Assembly: GCA_965228475.1 (NCBI GenBank)
Contig: OZ245817.1
Location: forward strand, 1-64,000
Length of the DNA: 64,000 bases
Source: Myxococcota bacterium
GTDB lineage: Bacteria; Myxococcota_A; UBA9160; JAFDDA01
Reading direction: 5' to 3'
Below are positions 35,268 to 44,091 of the stretch, one piece after another (positions within the stretch are counted from its first letter, which is position 1; every line of letters starts with the position of its first letter). Below the pieces are notes generated by a model. It was not told the DNA's origin. It worked only from the letters and a program-made list of their open reading frames with translations, and searched no databases. Both the position numbers and the translations under genes were made by a program.

Positions 35268-35438
35268 GGCGGGCAGTGTATCAGCCTGGCACGAAGCATC
35301 GGGCCGCTCGTGCCCCCGGGGGCCGCGAATCGGGTGCGGTCGCCCGGCCCGTGGAGGGAGTCAATTCGACGACTGTACGCCCGCGTTGCTCCCGGGGTAG
35401 TCTCAGCAGGCTCGTGCTGAGCTTGGAGCAAGGATGGA

Positions 35439-35636
35439 ATGTTCAGGAGGGTCGTGCAGAACGTCGGCATCATGATCGCGACGGCTGCACTCGTGGCCGG
35501 ATGGGGGCTCCTGGATCGGGAGTCAGGCCTCGAGAGCTGGTTCGAGCTACGCGAGCAAGTGAGAACCGCGACCGAGAATCTCGATCGCTACAAGCTCGAG
35601 GCAAGAAGTCTTGACCGAGAGTCGAGAGGGCCCTGA
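35439..35636 (+). CDS. FtsB/DivIC-like TM + coiled-coil segment, probably the frameshifted N-terminus of the next gene
   Basis: TM helix then DRESGLESWFELREQVRTATENLDRYKLEARSLDRE, an FtsB-like pattern; adding one G near 35621 joins it to DUF4062. Confidence 0.6.
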   Translation: MFRRVVQNVGIMIATAALVAGWGLLDRESGLESWFELREQVRTATENLDRYKLEARSLDRESRGP

Positions 35637-37000
35637 CCCTGGCGCGCAGTTCCCCTTCAGATGCCGCTCGAGTCTTCATCTCTTCCACGTCCGAGGATCT
35701 TCGCGAGGACCGCGCCAGTACGATCCGGATGCTCCGGCAGCTCGGGTGCAATCCTATTGCGATGGAGGATTTTGCGCCGGGTGGTTCGCCCCCACTACAG
35801 CGTTGTGTCCAGGAAGTCCGCGCGTGTGATGCCTACGTCGGGATATTCGCCTGGCGTTACGGCTACGTGCCAGAGGGGCACGAGAAGAGTATCACCGAGC
35901 TCGAGTACGAGGCCGCTCTCGCGGCAGGGCTGGAAGTGTTTATCTTCCTCATCGACGAAGATTCTCATAGCCCAGACGATGAGATCGGCACGCGCTTCGA
36001 GGCTGTTAGAGACCTCCGTGCCAAGCTGATGAAGAATCACGTTGTCGCTTTCTTTCGGGGTGCCAACGACTTGGCGCCCAAGGTAGTTACGTCGGTTGCG
36101 AAGTGGTTGGCCGGGTCCCGGCGCGAAGATCGCTCGCCGAGTGTTCCTGGCCTGCTCCCCTACCTGAGCGACAGAGATCGGCAAGTCCTCGAGGTCTTTA
36201 GGCTCTTGGAGCAGCGCTCAGCGGGTCAACGCCGCCCCACCTTCATCCTGATGCATGGTGGTTTGGAGCAAGCACACGACACGTTCGTGGATCGACTCAT
36301 TCATCAGGAGCTACCACGGCTTCTCAGGCTGGACCCCACGACCGAGCGAGTGACGCACTTGCCATTGCGATGGCGCGGGGGCGGCACGAGAACAGATCGG
36401 CTCGATTCGCTGGAGCTGCAGCTTGCGCAGGCGCTGGCGAGTCCTTCGCTGGAAGTCCAAGCGCCGAGCACCCTCGGATCGGAGTGGCGGGAGATCGCTT
36501 CCGCCGGGTCCGGGGTACTACTGATCACTTCGATGATCGGTAGCCACGAGTGGCACCACGACGAGGAGGATCTCATCGACTCTTGGATGGGACTCTGGCG
36601 AGGCTTCCCCGATTTGGCACCGGCGAGGTACATCGTTGTGATTGTTGGGGTCCAGTACCGTTCCTCCCCCGAATCTGGGTGGTTGTTTCGAAGAAGGAGC
36701 CGTCGTCAACACGCTGAGATTCGTCGCAGCCTTCGGGCCCTGACTGCCCGAGGGATGGATCGACTTGTCGTCGGCCTGCTGCCGGAACTCTCCAGCGTGA
36801 CCGAAGGGGATGTCGAGGAGTGGATGAAGGATCGGGTCCCAGAATTCTGTGAAGCAACTGGGCGTGACCCCGTGTTGATTCGGGAGCATCTGCTTCCCAA
36901 GGTGAGGGATCTGTTTCGTGATACCCGGGCTCCGATCCCGATGGCGACATTGGGCCCGCAGCTTCGTATGTTGCTCGCGGAAGAGGGCAAGAAGATATGA
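35621..37000 (+). CDS. DUF4062 (TIR/NDT-like) + inactive STAND (iSTAND) protein
   Basis: Frame is open from 35615. RVFISSTSEDLREDR..MEDF..YVGIFAWRYG..SITELEYEAA (DUF4062); LPYLSDRDRQ, HGGLEQAHDTFVDRL, LPELSSVTEGDVEEW (iSTAND-like). The first ATG (35729) lies inside the domain. Confidence 0.75.
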   Translation, partial: VERALTLARSSPSDAARVFISSTSEDLREDRASTIRMLRQLGCNPIAMEDFAPGGSPPLQRCVQEVRACDAYVGIFAWRYGYVPEGHEKSITELEYEAALAAGLEVFIFLIDEDSHSPDDEIGTRFEAVRDLRAKLMKNHVVAFFRGANDLAPKVVTSVAKWLAGSRREDRSPSVPGLLPYLSDRDRQVLEVFRLLEQRSAGQRRPTFILMHGGLEQAHDTFVDRLIHQELPRLLRLDPTTERVTHLPLRWRGGGTRTDRLDSLELQLAQALASPSLEVQAPSTLGSEWREIASAGSGVLLITSMIGSHEWHHDEEDLIDSWMGLWRGFPDLAPARYIVVIVGVQYRSSPESGWLFRRRSRRQHAEIRRSLRALTARGMDRLVVGLLPELSSVTEGDVEEWMKDRVPEFCEATGRDPVLIREHLLPKVRDLFRDTRAPIPMATLGPQLRMLLAEEGKKI

Positions 37001-37965
37001 ACAGACGGATCTTCACGACCGCTGACTCGCCGGATGGTTCTTGGGGCTCGTCGATCGATCGTCGACCTCTGGTAGCGCCTGAGGGATACCAAGCTGACGA
37101 TCGACTAAGGGATGCGGTCAGCGTATCCCTTCATCTCGGCCAGCCGCTTCTATTGACCGGAGAACCGGGAACCGGGAAGACGCAGCTGGCCTTCTCACTC
37201 GCTTGGGAGCTTGGCCTTGGGACTCCGCTGGGGTTTGATACGAAATCAACCAGCACGTCACGAGATCTATTCTACTCCTACGATTCTTTGGGTCGCTTTC
37301 ACGCTGCTCAGGCCGGGGGTGGAACCGCGAATCCGATCGACTATCTCCACTTCAACGCCCTCGGTCTCGCTGTCCTTCGCGCGACGCCACCCGAGAGCTA
37401 CTCCGATCTCAAGGATGCCCTGGGCGAGACTGCGCATCGGAAGCGGTCGGTGGTTTTGATCGACGAGATCGATAAGGCGCCCCGTGATTTCTCGAATGAT
37501 CTCCTCGCCGAACTCGAGGAGATGTATTTTAGGATTCCCGAACTGGCGAATCTCGTGGTCGCGGCAGACCCGGAGTATCGCCCCATCGTTGTCGTCACTA
37601 GCAACTCCGAGCGAAATCTTCCGGACGCGTTCCTGCGTCGCTGCGCCTACCACCACATCGAGTTCCCGGATCGAGATCGCATGCAGAGAATCGTCGCAGC
37701 TCGCCTCGGTGAACGAGTCGCTAAGGACCGGGAGTCGCTGGATCTAGCTCTTGATTTCTTTGAGGCCCTACGTGACCCAGCAACGACGCTCGCAAAGAAG
37801 CCCTCGACCGGCGAGTTCCTAGTTTGGTTGCGAATTCTGTCGGACCGAGGCGTTGGGCGAAACCCGCGGGAATGGGGGGCGACCCTGAGCGCCCTCGTGA
37901 AGACATCCGATGATTCGAGGCGGGCTCTGGGCCTTCTAGCCCGTTTCCGCACCCTGTCCGAGTAG
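36997..37965 (+). CDS. moxR: MoxR-family AAA+ ATPase
   Basis: PLLLTGEPGTGKT, VVLIDEIDKAPRDFSNDLL, TSNSERNLPDAFLRRC; ATGA overlap with the iSTAND gene. Confidence 0.92.
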   Translation: MNRRIFTTADSPDGSWGSSIDRRPLVAPEGYQADDRLRDAVSVSLHLGQPLLLTGEPGTGKTQLAFSLAWELGLGTPLGFDTKSTSTSRDLFYSYDSLGRFHAAQAGGGTANPIDYLHFNALGLAVLRATPPESYSDLKDALGETAHRKRSVVLIDEIDKAPRDFSNDLLAELEEMYFRIPELANLVVAADPEYRPIVVVTSNSERNLPDAFLRRCAYHHIEFPDRDRMQRIVAARLGERVAKDRESLDLALDFFEALRDPATTLAKKPSTGEFLVWLRILSDRGVGRNPREWGATLSALVKTSDDSRRALGLLARFRTLSE

Positions 37966-37970
37966 ATTCC

Positions 37971-40900
37971 TTGCTCCCGTCCGAAGAGTCACTCTTCGAC
38001 CTGCTCGACGAGCTGCGCTCCGCGGGACTTGGGATCGGGACAGAACACTACATTCAGGCGCAAGAGCTGCGTGTCTCCTTCGAGCAAGGCGCGCGATCGC
38101 AGAGCGACTTGTTGTCGTGGCTTGCACCTTTGTTGTGCTCGAGCCCTTCCGATCTGGAGACATTCTCAGAGGTTGCGGAATCCTGGAGCTCTCGAAGCGT
38201 CAATCGTGGCCGTCGCGAGTTTCCGTGGAGCCTCGGCCTCGGAAAGCTCCGTCGAGGGTTCTACGGCTGGCTAGGTCGCTGCCTCGGGAGATCGATTGGG
38301 CGTTGGTCGGGTGGCGCCCGCCTACTTACCGAGCTCAGGAAGCCAGACCGTCTTGGGGCCGTCACCGTAGGGTTGGTCGTTGGGGGCCTGGGCGTTCTCT
38401 TCGTCAGGAACGAGATCCTCGATCTCCGCTACGAGCTAGGCGAGATCTCCCAACAGGTCCTGGCGTTGGACGCCGAGGTTCGAAGTGTTCGAGGGCTGAC
38501 GGGCGGGGACGTCGTGCTTGATTCACCAGACCCGAGTTCCGTTTCCGTGACCGGCGTGATTGTCGACGAGGATGGACAGCCACTAGAAGGCGCGCAGGTC
38601 GAGATCCTAGGCGCACTCGGGGAGACTCGGTCTCTCGAACTCCATCTCGGCCCGCCCTTGGGGGTCGGTTTTCAGGGAAGCAACATCGTTGCGGTGGGCT
38701 CCGAAGAGGGGCGCCCGAAGGTGGTTCGCTGGAACCCAGAGCGTGCAGAGCCAGAGACTTGGTACCTGGAAGCTGATGCACCGAGGCATGCGGAGCTCTT
38801 TCCCGACGCCAGCTCGGTCATTCTGTCGTCTGAGCAGGGAGAGATTTCTCTCTTCGACATCGGGTCCAGCCAAAGCCGTTGGCGAAAGGTGATCCGGGGA
38901 CAAGTGCTTCGAGTGGCATCGTCTCCCCTCTCGACCGGCAGAGCATTCCTTGTTGTGTCCTGGAATCGAGGAATTCTCAGTGCCGAATGGTTCACGATCA
39001 ACGGCAACGGAGAGTCAGCGTCCCTCGTACGGACCATCGAGTCGGATCTCCCAAAGCTGATCGAGACCGAAGTATCCGAGGTCGACTTCCGAGTTCTCGC
39101 TTTGGTCGAGAGTTCCTCAGAGGTCATTGCCTTGGGAATGAGCCGGGCGGGTTCAGAACGGTGGTCACTGCCGGTGGTGGGGGCAGTGGACCTGGGAATG
39201 TCGGGTCAACGCTGGGTGGTCGCTCGAGAGGACTCGATCGAGCTCTACTCGCGAGGGTCGTTGGTCTTGGAGCTCGACGAGGTTGCCGGCGTCAGTGACG
39301 TCGACCTGCGCGAGGACGCTCTGGTCATCGAGACGTCCGAAAGGAGCCTAGCAGTCGTTGATCCGGAGTCTGGAACTCTGAACGTGGATTCTCGAGGGCC
39401 CCCGGACGGCCCGGTCGCGTGGCTCATAACCCAAACGACGATGCATGGTGAAGACCCAGTCTTGCGACGATGGGTTCACGGTCGTCCGACAGAAGCGACG
39501 CTTTCGATCAACAGTCAGAGCGGCGGCCCGAGCCCCGGGAGAGACGGTCACGGCGCGCAGTATCAAGTCGCCCCTGTGACCGCGCTGACTTCCGCGGTCC
39601 GACCCGATGGGCTCGGGGTTGCGACTCTCGGCCTTGGCGGGGTCCTTAGATTTCATGGAGTGCCCCTCGTGAGGACGACGAATCCTCTCGGGCGTTTCCG
39701 TGCCAAGTATCGTTCTCTTGGCGCCTTGACGTTGGTGCGAGCCGAGGCTGCGCCGTACGAATCGCGGACACTTCTGCTACCCGTCGAATCGTCGAGGGCA
39801 GACGTTCAGATTTCCCTCGACGTCGCACAGGTCTCCTCCGGGAAGCCGCTGGTAGAGTCGGTCTTCCTCGGTGTAGCTGTTGCGGTTGCAACGACGCTGG
39901 GCGTCTTCCTGTTGGCTCTGGGACGCCCGCGGGCCGTTGCTGAGCGGGCAGACTCTACGGCGCAGGACGATGCTCCTTCGCTCGCCCTGGCTCAGGGCGG
40001 AGAAAGGGAGCTGATCGATCCGCATGTGATCGACCGAATCAGCCAAGTAGGGGGCGTAGGCGGATCGTCGTTGCAGGCTCGCCTGGACGTTGAAGCGACG
40101 GTCAGGGCAACGGCTGAAGCAGCGGGCCACTTCAAGCCCATCCACGAGGAGATCAGTAGCGATGAGAGGTACCTCGCGCTCATAGATGCGCGCGGGGCGG
40201 GAGACCATCAAGCGCTACTGGTCCTCCATCTGCTCGAGACGCTCGCGAGCCGAGGCTTCCAGGCCACGTGTTTCACATTCCACTCCGATCCGAGGGTCTG
40301 TCGATCGGTTGATTCAGAATCGGATCTTTGGTCGTTGAGTCGCCTTGCCGCGAAGTACTCTGAGCATTCGCTGCTGATCTTTTGCAATCCGGAACAGTGC
40401 TGCGATCTCACGGCTGGAGGCTTGCAGCCCTGGGTTAAGGGGCTGGAGAGTTTCCGCTCCCGCGCAATCCTCGATCCACAGCCGGGAATGCTCTCTGGGG
40501 AGCTGGTGGACTCCCTCACCTCCGCGAACATCTCGGTCGTTCCCTCAACGCCGGAGGGCGTCGAGAGGTTGCTAGCAGGGGCTCGGCATCCGGAACGGGA
40601 GCCTCGCGAACCTCACTCCCCCATCCTTCTGGAACGGCCCCTTCGATGGCTCGACGAAGCCCCTCCACCCGAAGCCGATCAGGACCGTCTCTGTGTGGAG
40701 CTCATTGCGAGCCTTGGCTTCGATGACTTCAATCTGCTTGCAGCATGCGCCGTTTACCCGATCCTCGACTGGCCCCTCACGATCCTGCTTCTGAGGGCAC
40801 TCGACGCCTCGAAGCCCCTGGAGGCGCGTTTTGGGCAGCTACTCAGGTTCTCCCGGCTCCCTTGGTTTCGTGTGGGTTGGATGCCGGACTGGTTGCGCAG

Positions 40901-42812
40901 TCGGCTCCTCCGGGAGCTCCCCGTAGAAACGGAGCGGTCGATCCGTTCGGCCCTGCGGCTTCACATTGGAGCTGCAGGCGACGACGCCCTGAGAGCGACG
41001 GTTCGGCCACGAGGATTGCGTTGGCGGGCAGCAGGGTCTGGGGTGAGCCGGGAGATCGGAGAGGACCGGGTCTTTGTCGGTTTCATGATGGGGAGCCGCG
41101 GTCGTGGCCTCGACGTCGAGCTGAGGAGCGCTCCAGTGTTGCGCTTGATGCTAGGAGCGGGCGTCCAGAGGCTATTCGGGATCTGGCGGGTCCTCCGCGG
41201 GAGAGCGGTGCGGCTGATCGACGTCAGGGTAGGTCGCCTGCGCGACAAGGCGCTGGCTCCGGGCATCTCGTTGATGAGCAGCGCAACGGATCGACGAACG
41301 TTGTCCCGGGTGTATGCCCTGGGCCTGCTAGGCGTTGCGATAGCCGCCGTTCTGGGGGGGCGAGCGATCTATCTGGCTCAGCCTCGCCAAGGTCGCGACA
41401 ACGTTCGGGCCTCGACGATAGTTGTACCGCCGGTAAGGGGAGAGATTCTGGATCGCGATGGTCGTCGTCTCGCGGTTTCCGTAGAGGCGCCCTCTGTCTA
41501 CATAGACAGCGGCTTCGAAGAATCATCGATTCTATCGCTTTCTCGGGCGCTCGAGCTGGACGAGGGCTTCGTGCGCGGTCGGTTCGAGTCGATGAAGAAC
41601 TTCAGTTTCATCCAGCGGTGGGCGTCCGAGGAGGCGGCTGAGCGGGTGCAGAGTCTCGGTATCCCTGGTGTTGGGGTTCTGCGGGAGCCGAGGAGAATGT
41701 ACCCGGAAGGGACTCTGGCTGGTTCACTGGTCGGTTTCGCGAACATCGATGGCGATGGAGTTCGTGGTATCGAACAGGCAGAGGACAATTGGCTCAGGGG
41801 CAGAGAAAGACGAGTCCTGTTTGAACGCGACGCTCGAGGCAAAGTCATGGCCGACGAGATGCTCGACCCCCGCCAGTGGGCCGGCGGAGACGTGCAGCTG
41901 ACACTTGACCTCGCGACACAACGCCGCGTGGTCGGCGAGTTGTCCAAGCTTCTCACCTCTACTCGATCCGGCGGGGCGGTCGGTGTGGTCTTGGGCAGTC
42001 GGAGCGAGGTTACGGCACTCGCGCAGGCTCCCTCGTTCGATCCGAACCGCTTCCGATCGACCTCCTTTGCGGATACTCGGGCGAAGCCGTTCCTCGACTC
42101 TCACCAACCGGGGATGTCGCTTCTCCCGGTATTCCTGGCGATTGGACTGGAGAAGGGCGTGCTAGGCATCGATGCCTTGGAATCGTTCGACCCGGAGGAT
42201 CCGAGAACCCGCAGCACTGCGAGAGTATTGGCGAGAAGGCTCGGTCCGCGCGGGACTTCCGAAGGCCTTCGTGAGGCCGGGTTCGGGCGGGTGTCAGGAA
42301 GCGGCTTCCCTGGTGAGTCCGCGGGAATTCTGCGGCCCTGGGAACAGTGGCGTCCGATCGACCTCGACGCGATCTCGGCTGGATTCGGGATCAACGTGAC
42401 TCCGATCCAGCTCGCATCCGCGCTCTCGGCCCTTGTGGGCGGCGGAGTCCAGAGGTCGCCCGAACTCGTGCTCACACGCCGAAGGCCTGGAGGGCAATGG
42501 CAGGCCCTTCCTCAATCAGATTCTCGACGCGTCGTCTCTGAGGGTACGTCTCAAGCGATCACCCGCTGGTTCGAGTCGCGCTCCATTGAGCTGATCGGAG
42601 GACGATATTCGAGCTTCGAGGTCCGGGCCGAAGCGTTGAGTTCCAGTACGGGCGAGTTCGACGATCAGATCTTCTGGAGCCTCGGCGTGGTATTTGGGCC
42701 GAGTCCTACCGTGATCGTTCTCCAAGTAACGGACCCAGGTACCGGCGTAGAAGACGCTCTCGGAGCGGCCTTCCGGGGAGTCGCCTCTAGGATCCTCGAG
42801 TCTTCTCCATGA
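37971..42812 (+). CDS. MoxR-associated vWA-type protein fused to an FtsL-like helix, carboxypeptidase-regulatory/beta-propeller region and an inactive FtsI-like PBP domain
   Basis: LRSAGLGIG..LAPLLCSS N-domain; LDVEATVRAT..YLALID..DHQA..AACAVYP..RLPWFRVGWMPDWLR (vWA component); RGEILDRDGRRLAVS, RRMYPEG, GIEQ, TLD, VTPIQLA (class B PBP). Confidence 0.8.
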   Translation: MLPSEESLFDLLDELRSAGLGIGTEHYIQAQELRVSFEQGARSQSDLLSWLAPLLCSSPSDLETFSEVAESWSSRSVNRGRREFPWSLGLGKLRRGFYGWLGRCLGRSIGRWSGGARLLTELRKPDRLGAVTVGLVVGGLGVLFVRNEILDLRYELGEISQQVLALDAEVRSVRGLTGGDVVLDSPDPSSVSVTGVIVDEDGQPLEGAQVEILGALGETRSLELHLGPPLGVGFQGSNIVAVGSEEGRPKVVRWNPERAEPETWYLEADAPRHAELFPDASSVILSSEQGEISLFDIGSSQSRWRKVIRGQVLRVASSPLSTGRAFLVVSWNRGILSAEWFTINGNGESASLVRTIESDLPKLIETEVSEVDFRVLALVESSSEVIALGMSRAGSERWSLPVVGAVDLGMSGQRWVVAREDSIELYSRGSLVLELDEVAGVSDVDLREDALVIETSERSLAVVDPESGTLNVDSRGPPDGPVAWLITQTTMHGEDPVLRRWVHGRPTEATLSINSQSGGPSPGRDGHGAQYQVAPVTALTSAVRPDGLGVATLGLGGVLRFHGVPLVRTTNPLGRFRAKYRSLGALTLVRAEAAPYESRTLLLPVESSRADVQISLDVAQVSSGKPLVESVFLGVAVAVATTLGVFLLALGRPRAVAERADSTAQDDAPSLALAQGGERELIDPHVIDRISQVGGVGGSSLQARLDVEATVRATAEAAGHFKPIHEEISSDERYLALIDARGAGDHQALLVLHLLETLASRGFQATCFTFHSDPRVCRSVDSESDLWSLSRLAAKYSEHSLLIFCNPEQCCDLTAGGLQPWVKGLESFRSRAILDPQPGMLSGELVDSLTSANISVVPSTPEGVERLLAGARHPEREPREPHSPILLERPLRWLDEAPPPEADQDRLCVELIASLGFDDFNLLAACAVYPILDWPLTILLLRALDASKPLEARFGQLLRFSRLPWFRVGWMPDWLRSRLLRELPVETERSIRSALRLHIGAAGDDALRATVRPRGLRWRAAGSGVSREIGEDRVFVGFMMGSRGRGLDVELRSAPVLRLMLGAGVQRLFGIWRVLRGRAVRLIDVRVGRLRDKALAPGISLMSSATDRRTLSRVYALGLLGVAIAAVLGGRAIYLAQPRQGRDNVRASTIVVPPVRGEILDRDGRRLAVSVEAPSVYIDSGFEESSILSLSRALELDEGFVRGRFESMKNFSFIQRWASEEAAERVQSLGIPGVGVLREPRRMYPEGTLAGSLVGFANIDGDGVRGIEQAEDNWLRGRERRVLFERDARGKVMADEMLDPRQWAGGDVQLTLDLATQRRVVGELSKLLTSTRSGGAVGVVLGSRSEVTALAQAPSFDPNRFRSTSFADTRAKPFLDSHQPGMSLLPVFLAIGLEKGVLGIDALESFDPEDPRTRSTARVLARRLGPRGTSEGLREAGFGRVSGSGFPGESAGILRPWEQWRPIDLDAISAGFGINVTPIQLASALSALVGGGVQRSPELVLTRRRPGGQWQALPQSDSRRVVSEGTSQAITRWFESRSIELIGGRYSSFEVRAEALSSSTGEFDDQIFWSLGVVFGPSPTVIVLQVTDPGTGVEDALGAAFRGVASRILESSP

Positions 42813-43885
42813 GGAACTCCGCACCCATCGCTCCGTGCCTATTGCTGTCTGGTCTCGGCATCTTGATGGCATATAGCCTCGGCGCTCCACACGGCGTTGA
42901 AAGAGAGCGGTTGCTCGCGCAGCTAGCGGGAGTCGTGGCGGGTGCCATCGCGGGTTTCTTGGTGTACAGGGTGCCGATACGTCTCCTGCACGACGCCAGC
43001 CCGCTCCTGCTCGTAGTGAGCATCTCTCTTACCATCGCAGGGCTGTTGTTTGGCCGTGAGGTGAACGGTGCCAACCTCTATCTCCATCTGTACGTGTCAG
43101 ACCTCGGATTCGGAATCCGGCACGGGTACCTCAGTGTCCTCCTTGCAATGGTATGGATTGCTAGGAGCGTTCGTGACGCTCGCACAGGCCCCGGGATTCC
43201 GTGGCCCCTCTTGCTCGTCCTCTTCCCGGGAGGAGCAATGCTCGCTGCTGGGGACCGAGTGTCGTTTGTACTCCTCACTACGATCGTGGTTCTCGCCCTG
43301 TTCGTGACCGGAGTTCGGATTCGTTGGCTCGTAGGGGCAATGACGATCTCGCTCTCGGTGATGGCTCTCTGGTTGGCGAACAACCCCTATCTTTGGACCC
43401 GCTTTGCTGGGTTTCTTGCACCGTGGGATCGTCGAGAGTACGAGGCCTACTCCCTGGTGCAATCGTTCGTTGCATTCGAGCGTGGAGGCCTCTTGGGGGT
43501 TGGCTTGGGAGACAGTCGCCAGAAACTGTTCTATCTCCCCGAAGCCCACTCTGATTTCGTGCTGGCTGTCTTGGCCGAGGAGCTAGGTGCGGTGGCCGTC
43601 TTGGTGGTGATCCTCTGTTTCGTGTGGATCGGGAGGTATGGATGGCAGGCAGCGATCCGATCGCACACGCTTTTTTCGAGGGCTCTTGCCACAATCACCA
43701 CCGCTTTCCTCGTGGTCCCTGTCACGTTGCACGCCGCGTCCGTTATGGGATTGATCCCGACGTCGACTTTTCCTTTGCCACTGGTCTCCTACGGCCGCAA
43801 CCATCTGCTTGTCTTTGGCGCCGCCATGGGAGTCCTTTGCCGCATCGACAGAGAATCGGCCCGAATGGACGGAATGGACGAGTAG
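42809..43885 (+). CDS. ftsW: Divergent FtsW-like SEDS membrane protein
   Basis: QSFVAFERGGLLGVGLGDSRQKLFYLPEAHSDFVLAVLAEELG, LPLVSYG; about 10 TMs; ATGA overlap. Confidence 0.82.
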   Translation: MRNSAPIAPCLLLSGLGILMAYSLGAPHGVERERLLAQLAGVVAGAIAGFLVYRVPIRLLHDASPLLLVVSISLTIAGLLFGREVNGANLYLHLYVSDLGFGIRHGYLSVLLAMVWIARSVRDARTGPGIPWPLLLVLFPGGAMLAAGDRVSFVLLTTIVVLALFVTGVRIRWLVGAMTISLSVMALWLANNPYLWTRFAGFLAPWDRREYEAYSLVQSFVAFERGGLLGVGLGDSRQKLFYLPEAHSDFVLAVLAEELGAVAVLVVILCFVWIGRYGWQAAIRSHTLFSRALATITTAFLVVPVTLHAASVMGLIPTSTFPLPLVSYGRNHLLVFGAAMGVLCRIDRESARMDGMDE

Positions 43886-44091
43886 GGTCCTATGTGCCCT
43901 GCGCAATAAGCCGTCTTCGTGTCGCAGCGGCTTGCCTACTGGGCGGCTCGATGCGTTGACGGGCATTTTGCTCGCGGCTAGCTTCCCCGAGATCCCTAGA
44001 TCTATCGCGGAGTTCCGCCACAGTCCGCACACCAGTCCGCACGCGTCTTGGCGCGCCTTCGCCGCCCGCCAGAAGCTGGAGGGGCTCCTCG

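Follow-up and report, generated by a model that had tools for sequence, protein, structure and literature searches.

An FtsL-like helix and coil inside a MoxR-vWA-type island that encodes look-alikes of the septal synthase core in a Myxococcota bacterium

Why would a protein encoded far from the division genes carry a piece that looks like FtsL? The question is raised by the first 64 kb (hereafter the window) of the 5.0-Mb, single-contig genome of a Myxococcota bacterium (GCA_965228475.1, contig OZ245817.1; ~70% GC), where an open reading frame (ORF) on the forward strand, as are all features below, encodes a 1613-residue protein (37971-42812). An earlier note, made from the sequence alone, had described this protein as a vWA protein with an embedded FtsL-like transmembrane (TM) helix and coiled coil. 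The analysis indicates, with a probability of roughly 85%, that the likeness to FtsL reflects true homology, most of the signal coming from the coil, and that the segment is accordingly best described as a putative FtsL-derived module (TM helix plus proximal coil) within the membrane-spanning vWA component of a predicted conflict system. Judged by homology, the surrounding island encodes look-alikes of all four subunits of the septal synthase membrane core, FtsB, FtsL, FtsI and FtsW.

The peptide named in the earlier note corresponds to residues 129-173 (positions 38355-38489). A 19-residue Kyte-Doolittle scan places the first helix (TM1) at residues 127-145 (38349-38405; score 1.99), preceded by four Arg/Lys residues and followed by a net acidic stretch, and the membrane-proximal coil occupies residues 146-173 (38406-38489), where hydrophobic residues at 149, 152, 156, 159, 163, 166, 170 and 173 form an unbroken 3-4-3-4 heptad with eight core positions. 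In a low-confidence AlphaFold2 (AF2) model the helix runs continuously over residues 127-159. FtsL sequences were collected from the host's class (matches in 90 of 121 genomes), and, among 93 matches listed, the 30 best-scoring ones with loci, host FtsL included, were used for an order-level hidden Markov model (HMM), which was searched against the 52,823 six-frame ORFs of at least 40 residues in the whole genome. Host FtsL was recovered at E 8.7e-33 and the large ORF at 1.3e-4 (23.0 bits), the sole significant non-self match, with the next ORF at 0.7. HMM positions 23-73 of 114 align to residues 123-173, such that TM1 falls on the TM part of the model and the LRYELG of the coil coincides with the matching stretch of the consensus. 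In isolation the segment scored 28.2 bits with the FtsL model (TM side alone, 4.7; coil alone, 15.0) and 3.6 bits with an FtsB model. Shuffling the coil with the TM helix kept gave a mean of 3.5 bits (maximum, 11.5), shuffling the TM side gave a mean of 16.1 bits (maximum, 26.9), and the native score was reached in 0 of 500 shuffles in either case. A profile comparison by hhalign returned a probability of 95.5 against the FtsL alignment (P 1.4e-8; score, 47.9; residues 128-172) and of 1.2 against the FtsB alignment. The FtsL-like helix and coil claimed in that note are thus borne out by the HMM, the shuffles and hhalign.

The module covers only the TM helix and proximal coil of FtsL. The host ftsL (contig positions 3109368-3109727) lies between rsmH and ftsI in the dcw cluster, the grouping of genes for division and the cell wall, at 3.11 Mb, which was located via PBP (penicillin-binding protein) and SEDS paralogs. 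The FtsL C-terminal region (the LRDP...GF..P stretch of the order, HMM positions 74-114) is unmatched in the large protein, where a Gly linker and a CarboxypepD_reg-like strand come after the coil instead. Unlike stand-alone FtsL, the segment forms part of a 1613-residue protein whose gene, in the island, is remote from the dcw cluster, and the linkage of the segment to the FtsI-type domain described below consists of the shared polypeptide only. Second FtsL-like matches in three other genomes were dropped, with an Arg-rich TM, no coil and 11-13 bits. The FtsL of the host's order would escape Pfam-based annotation, as PF04999 also misses the host's own FtsL and its best matches genome-wide (13 bits) fall at other loci.

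The peptide at 35439 that the earlier note had called FtsB-like could be followed in the same way. This 65-residue ORF (35439-35636) has a TM helix at ~residues 9-25, a DRESG linker and a coil core at 34-58 with eight heptad core positions, the same count as in the FtsL-like coil and thus compatible with a pairing of the two; the e/g charges of the two coils, compared by eye, gave no decisive sign of complementarity either way. An order-level FtsB HMM (30 sequences; matches in 59 of 61 genomes) recovered host FtsB at E 5.5e-35, the 65-residue ORF at 1.8e-8 (35.7 bits) and the next ORF of the genome at 0.01; BLASTP aligned it to host FtsB at E 3e-7 (37% identity over 52 residues), and hhalign gave a probability of 96.6 against FtsB and 0.9 against FtsL, all in agreement with the description. 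Its GC content at third codon positions (GC3, 0.74) is island-like, unlike that of the host. The alignment spans HMM positions 3-60 of 100 and the conserved C-terminal 40 positions are absent, so that the ORF is classed, from its homology, as a truncated FtsB paralog and not as a full member of the family. The likeness of both coils is specific to the versions of FtsL and FtsB found in the host's order. The C-terminal parts missing relative to host FtsB and FtsL are presumably those that dock FtsQ. In a model of the Escherichia coli complex, as given in passages of PMC10390529, these missing C-termini form 'Truss' strands with FtsQ, and FtsL and FtsB place the anchor loop of FtsI over extracellular loop 4 (ECL4) of FtsW, the 'Lid'. 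The retained proximal parts match the 'Lid' in position, where the 'Hub' also begins, a correspondence of position and not of individual residues.

The polypeptide that carries the FtsL-like coil ends in a periplasmic, FtsI-type class B PBP module with pedestal and transpeptidase folds (41376-42812), which upholds the earlier proposal of FtsL and FtsI parts in a single chain. Pfam identified PBP_dimer (5e-10) and Transpeptidase (4.6e-16), NCBIfam gave partial matches, FtsI/PBP2 chains in the PDB matched at E 7e-42 to 1e-35, and the C-terminal 500 residues are 39.6% identical to host FtsI and 27.7% to MrdA. The third TM helix (TM3; residues 1117-1135, 41319-41375; Kyte-Doolittle 1.91) aligns to the TM helix of host FtsI and is the equivalent of the FtsI membrane anchor. 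Alignment with one solved PBP2 and with the host proteins FtsI and MrdA shows that the module has lost all three active-site motifs, with SxxK replaced by MSLL, SSN by RTR and KTG by STG, and is apparently catalytically dead. It lacks 68 residues that host FtsI has; the pedestal and transpeptidase halves are each 43% identical to host FtsI, and this equal identity in both halves suggests that the fold has been kept as a scaffold.

The large gene ends in a stop codon that overlaps the ATG of an FtsW-like SEDS gene (42809-43885; FTSW_RODA_SPOVE, 3.7e-52), whose product matches PF01098, the ten-TM SEDS fold, with 177.9 bits. In a tree the copy groups with FtsW and not RodA, an assignment at the group level only, on a branch of 2.7 compared to a median of 0.48. 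At the position of the invariant Trp in the first periplasmic loop it has Tyr, and the Q-x-x-[ED]-x-x-[KR] motif is gone; both signatures are present in all 13 housekeeping sequences compared (host FtsW, host RodA and 11 FtsW from the order) and count as essential in the RodA literature. Alignments to solved FtsW chains and to the 13 housekeeping SEDS proteins indicate that the copy has kept the Asp of the PEAHSDF stretch, which is taken to be the catalytic SEDS residue. In E. coli, D297 is called the putative catalytic residue in passages of PMC10390529. Of 400 other genomes of the phylum, none had a second FtsW-like gene at E ≤1e-40; the top identity to the FtsW copy was 43% and matches were concentrated in the host's order, which suggests that the module was probably recruited within that lineage.

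All five genes occur in an island between gpsA and the nuo operon, where GC is 58-64% (35600-44000) compared to 70-72% in the flanks and the borders are sharp by composition. The GC3 of the five genes is 0.65-0.76, and that of the flanking host genes gpsA and nuoF 0.94-0.95; the uniformly low values mark a foreign and compositionally uniform set, and on this basis the island is considered horizontally acquired and no recent copy of the host dcw genes. Start and stop codons overlap as ATGA at 36997 and 42809 and as CTGA at 35633-35636 (the candidate CTG start of the DUF4062-iSTAND gene and the TGA stop of the FtsB-like ORF), and the five genes are predicted to be a translationally coupled operon. 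No integrase, tRNA or flanking direct repeats were found at the island borders within the examined stretch, a promoter scan yielded no sigma-70-type site, and terminator-like sites were no more frequent than in shuffled sequence. In two relatives, one of the same genus (89% complete) and one of the same family (81% complete), the island was not found, and PADLOC returned only generic AAA+ matches.

Other observations on the island concern a repeat and its occurrence in public data. A perfect 18-nucleotide inverted repeat has arms at 36470-36487, inside the iSTAND gene, and 40280-40297, within ..HSDPRV.., a conserved stretch in the vWA-like core, 3.8 kb apart; by a rough estimate a perfect 18-mer is improbable by chance in 9.4 kb, and the pair could reflect long-range mRNA pairing or coincidence. 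The island (35300-43950) is near-complete in three public runs from two studies (word shares of 1.00, 1.00 and 0.91), and two more runs from one of those studies contain next to no island sequence. Among the public runs with island sequence, no RNA run carrying the stretch was listed.

The remaining genes of the operon point to the class of system in which the look-alikes are found. The gene at 35633-37000 fuses DUF4062, of a TIR-like NADase family, to iSTAND: PF13271 matches at full length at 35669-35917 (89.9 bits) in a frame free of stops, and PF19995 matches at E 1.2e-8 (35.9 bits against a cut-off of 24). The start of the DUF4062 domain, at 35669, precedes the first ATG (35729), and no ATG, GTG or TTG occurs earlier in the frame. 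The only start candidates ahead of this ATG are CTG codons, the first of which (35633) overlaps the TGA of the FtsB-like ORF and is the probable start of the gene, non-canonical and translationally coupled. Annotation from 35729 would remove the first strand of the NADase domain. According to one report, DUF4062 is a TIR-like NADase and has a catalytic Glu (10.64898/2026.05.01.722283). The next gene, with an ATG that overlaps the iSTAND-gene stop codon, encodes a MoxR-like AAA+ ATPase (36997-37965; AAA, 1e-10, 42.6 bits; AAA_5, 2.1e-10, 41.2 bits), for which the assignment to the MoxR subfamily rests on context and on partial NCBIfam matches (MadB_ATPase and GvpN). Its translation includes putative Walker A- and B-like stretches. 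A second, distant MoxR-like gene is present elsewhere on the contig (2458230-2459084), with 26% identity to the island MoxR.

The large protein belongs to an extensive family. A HMMER search with residues 1-1110 (threshold, E 1e-3) matched 2687 library representatives; the core (~residues 650-1050) is matched by all of the best 150 and the N-domain by most of them. The shared layout consists of an N-domain, a TM helix at ~115-130, a variable periplasmic loop, a second TM helix, the conserved core and a variable C-terminus. Loops contain CarboxypepD_reg, PASTA, PEGA, WD40 or low-complexity sequence, and C-termini contain LemA, TPR, SLT, TIR, caspase, FGE-sulfatase or IcmF-like domains. Amongst the best 149 family members, 149 match the core and 138 the N-domain, and none has a PBP-type region or a match to residues 146-625. 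The cytoplasmic N-terminal domain of the window protein (residues 1-126, 37971-38348), the part matched by BLASTP in those 138, consists of a helical part common to the family (~residues 4-75) and an Arg/Lys-rich stretch before TM1, and fits the four-helical N-domain of iSTAND vWA proteins described in passages of PMC7159879. In the window protein and 15 members, neither the N-domain (37971-38195) nor the ~400-residue core (39918-41100) has a Pfam or NCBIfam match. The family core is thereby common to at least 2687 representatives and has no curated model.

Based on the iSTAND match, the MoxR gene and a family architecture that fits PMC7159879, the five-gene island is assigned to the iSTAND-type MoxR-vWA conflict systems, with a DUF4062 NADase as the predicted head. 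As presented in passages of that paper, the iSTAND ternary systems (vWA-MoxR subsystem 2) combine a MoxR gene, an iSTAND protein with a TIR-like N-terminal head and a protein of vWA type that has a helical N-domain, TM helices and a variable C-terminus behind the TM helix, all of which have a likeness in the island, the last with a core that is vWA-like; Kaur et al. 2020 describe the vWA protein as having a four-helical N-domain, TM helices and peptidoglycan-associated domains behind the TM helix (PMC7159879). The family examined here likewise often has peptidoglycan-associated PASTA and PEGA domains. What sets the island apart is that paralogs of the septal synthase core make up its variable parts, and that it has five coupled genes rather than three. 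This class with its DUF4062 head, the dead PBP, the signature losses of the FtsW copy and the truncation of both coil proteins all go beyond the earlier note.

The topology of the large protein is consistent with a periplasmic location of the FtsL-like coil. The earlier note had placed hydrophobic segments at ~38355, ~39860 and ~41310, and these were matched by three strong segments at residues 127-145, 631-649 and 1117-1135 (starting at 38349, 39861 and 41319). Weaker hydrophobic stretches at residues 922-940, 1382-1400 and 1566-1584 fall in folded domains. The first of these belongs to the helical domain of the AlphaFold model of the core (model residues 273-291; predicted local distance difference test (pLDDT) score >90), a confidently folded domain, and is therefore probably no membrane span; the latter two sit inside the PBP fold. 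The three helices are consistent with an in-out-in-out arrangement, in which the core would be cytoplasmic, on the MoxR side, and the PBP periplasmic, as it is in FtsI. At TM1 and TM2 this arrangement follows the positive-inside rule, and it also fits the usual location of the homologous domains, such that the topology that had been called self-consistent holds. TM2 (residues 631-649, 39861-39917; Kyte-Doolittle 2.46) has three Arg on its C-terminal side.

Between TM1 and TM2, after the coil, lies a beta-rich periplasmic region (residues 174-630, 38490-39860) with a CarboxypepD_reg-like start (residues 192-213) and, possibly, a BamB/PQQ-like propeller. The propeller proposed earlier is left with leads at most: CarboxypepD_reg (E 0.0054) and PQQ_2 (E 0.0079) both fall below the Pfam cut-off, atlas feature matches for the region score no higher than 0.82, and the AF2 single-sequence model of residues 122-650, though composed mostly of strands, has a mean pLDDT of 34, which makes it unusable for a claim about the fold. 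No homologs of the region were found in word-based searches or among the 149 family members.

The cytoplasmic conserved core between TM2 and TM3 (39918-41318) was modelled with AF2 from 56 sequences (pLDDT, 80; predicted TM-score, 0.76) as an alpha/beta domain (~residues 725-869) followed by a helical domain (~884-1010). The top three Foldseek matches were all NorD VWA chains of NorQD complexes (best E 2.4e-3, probability 1.00), and a second aligner, VIA, gave Z 8.7 for the Rea1 MIDAS (metal ion-dependent adhesion site) domain (169 aligned residues) and Z 8.0 for the NorD VWA (144 aligned residues). By Foldseek, the closest structural likeness of the core is to NorQ-NorD (9qhe, 9qhf and 9qh8), in which a NorD VWA is bound to a MoxR-type ATPase. 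Several results leave the vWA identity weak. There was no Foldseek match at E 1e-3 and no Pfam VWA match, a Z level of ~8 is equally reached by many CheY-like and TIR folds, and the usual MIDAS position, which was assigned by inspection and not by structural superposition, reads D-A-R-G-A-G-D, degenerate compared to D-x-S-x-S; the family consensus at this stretch is D-R-x-S-x-x-D. The island domain also differs from NorD in its setting, between two TM helices of a 1613-residue envelope protein. Thus, the vWA domain of the earlier note has the NorD matches in its favour and lacks a match at either threshold, and for the modelled core the term 'vWA-like' is reasonable but not proven.

How might these parts work together? 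The copies of FtsB, FtsL, FtsI and FtsW would assemble in the inner membrane and periplasm as an FtsBLIW-like pseudo-complex that is independent of FtsQ, and that the four act together in this manner is favoured here, if not by a wide distance from even. As in the FtsQLBWI core (8bh1 and 8p1u; passages of PMC10390529), all four subunits are recognisable and have the expected topology, and the FtsL-type helix passes straight into its coil, with a short polar linker between helix and coil in the FtsB type. Compared to that core, the island encodes no FtsQ partner, its FtsB and FtsL copies are without their C-terminal parts, FtsL and FtsI are placed on one chain with the cytoplasmic vWA-like core between them, and the catalytic signatures are lost. 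That only the TM helix and proximal coil are kept in both small copies fits a self-contained, FtsQ-independent assembly. Rarity weighs on the other side. The locus is a singleton, with no sibling found that has the PBP, the coil or the FtsW copy, and conservation and covariation therefore cannot support assembly. Word-based homolog searches returned the query itself only for residues 1-660, the query plus an unrelated FtsI-MurE fusion for residues 1100-1613 among long proteins, and nothing for residues 176-628 among shorter proteins, though blanks from this tool are weak evidence, as it missed relatives of the N-domain that HMMER and BLAST found.

The loss of catalytic signatures points to a binding scaffold and not a synthase. 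Tentatively, and at somewhat short of even odds, the non-catalytic pseudo-complex is proposed to be the sensing or bait surface of the system rather than its output, a reading favoured on the grounds that the iSTAND protein carries the killing head and that catalysis has been stripped from the envelope module. Candidate signals would be an inhibitor or ligand normally aimed at the septal synthase or lipid II or, alternatively, something caught by the adjacent beta-rich domain. Binding would shift TM1, TM2 and TM3; on the cytoplasmic side the vWA-like domain and the MoxR ATPase would register the shift and in turn license the DUF4062 NADase on the iSTAND protein, with NAD+ depletion and growth arrest as the predicted result. 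PBP-type or PBP-associated extracytoplasmic modules that are coupled across the membrane to cytoplasmic signalling domains exist in BlaR1/MecR1 and in the PASTA-domain kinases, and BlaR1 senses via covalent acylation of its active-site Ser. The island differs in that the acylated Ser is absent from its PBP and the cytoplasmic partner is vWA/MoxR and not a protease or kinase. Also counted for a sensing role are the model of Dore et al., in which the variable domains of vWA proteins are sensors that signal via MoxR to the enzymatic head of a third protein (passages of PMC10907252), and the report of DUF4062 as an NADase (10.64898/2026.05.01.722283). A narrower version, for now a minority possibility, is an 'integrated decoy', an inert FtsB-FtsL-FtsI-FtsW replica wired via vWA/MoxR to the NADase, by which the cell would detect factors of phages or competitors directed against FtsWI-FtsLB or lipid II once they bind to the replica.

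The same parts could instead be the weapon. An FtsBLIW look-alike deployed after a cytoplasmic MoxR/vWA trigger (e.g., via iSTAND) would poison septal wall synthesis, either by titrating lipid II or by displacing host FtsWI/FtsLB, and thereby stop division or lyse the infected cell. This agrees with Kaur et al., who take the variable C-terminal domains of vWA proteins as effectors and place peptidoglycan-associated domains behind the TM helix (passages of PMC7159879), a view that runs counter to a sensing role. With its Asp kept, the FtsW copy may retain residual polymerase activity, and an uncrosslinking polymerase beside a dead transpeptidase is conceivable. Further, FtsL-type coils are the natural switch of FtsWI via Hub and Lid (passages of PMC10390529). 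Nonetheless, this use of the look-alikes is considered unlikely. A dedicated killing head, the DUF4062 NADase, is already present, the FtsW copy is without the Trp and Q-x-x-[ED]-x-x-[KR] that 13 of 13 housekeeping SEDS proteins keep, the lack of the parts for joining FtsQ in the FtsB and FtsL copies disfavours entry into the host divisome, and the large beta-rich periplasmic domain resembles a binding module.

A further rival concerns the FtsL likeness itself. The segment could be the ordinary TM1 of the family with a generic heptad stalk after it, which would dimerise and hold the periplasmic domain away from the membrane, and short heptad coils are easily alike. TM1 is indeed at the usual place for the family (~115-130), the FtsL signal comes largely from ~28 residues, with just 15 bits for the coil alone beside 4.7 for the TM side, and BLASTP of the coil against host FtsL was not significant (E 1.9). 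Pfam and NCBIfam gave no FtsL (PF04999) or DivIC (PF04977) match on the segment at E up to 10 and no FtsL/DivIC match on the 65-residue ORF, and whole-genome Pfam FtsL/DivIC scans likewise missed both. Despite these points, chance or convergence is improbable. The large ORF was singled out from 52,823 and its score was not reached by shuffling. Sister segments consisting of TM1 plus 40 residues (n = 144, the 149 family members minus five without a detectable TM1) reached a maximum hhalign score against FtsL of 23.1 (mean, 15.1; probability ≤19), compared to 47.9 for the window protein, whose likeness is specific to FtsL over FtsB. The top FtsL-HMM score among the 149 members was only 7.4 bits, which argues for the coil as a specific acquisition and no trait of the family. 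Lastly, independent FtsB, FtsI and FtsW paralogs in the same operon raise the prior strongly.

A working, specialised wall synthase without a conflict role, with MoxR-vWA as its assembly chaperone, would account for the adjoining SEDS and class B PBP genes, as in genuine pairs, and for the company of MoxR-vWA pairs, which mature enzymes such as NorQD (per the titles of the top Foldseek matches), but is highly improbable given that all three transpeptidase motifs are destroyed, the SEDS signatures are lost, the operon includes a translationally coupled DUF4062-iSTAND gene, and the composition is foreign, with the island not found in the two nearest genomes. SpoVE/SpoVD and the PBP3SAL pairs are similar to the island in being extra FtsW/FtsI-type paralogs outside of the dcw cluster; those are active specialised synthases, whereas the island pair is without catalytic signatures and is predicted to be wired to MoxR, vWA, iSTAND and NADase.

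Paralogs of FtsL, FtsB, FtsW or FtsI in MoxR-vWA or anti-phage systems were not found in the literature searched, and the text passages of PMC7159879, supplementary tables aside, make no mention of PBP or SEDS domains and use 'penicillin' zero times. If the proposed role as sensor or bait is true, the island would be, within the literature found, the first known conflict system to copy the whole membrane core of the septal synthase minus catalysis. It would offer a testable case of target mimicry, with a guard or decoy logic, at the bacterial envelope, and would be a hint of natural FtsWI-FtsLB inhibitors frequent enough to make a guard worthwhile; the decoy version, if true, would parallel in bacteria the integrated decoy domains of plant immune receptors. 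The natural minimal FtsL/FtsB pair, each with a TM helix and ~25 coil residues, may define the part that is sufficient for binding FtsWI and would be useful for the open question of how FtsLB activates FtsWI. For the family as a whole, the island bears on the debate as to whether the variable domains of vWA proteins in MoxR-vWA ternary systems are sensors or effectors.

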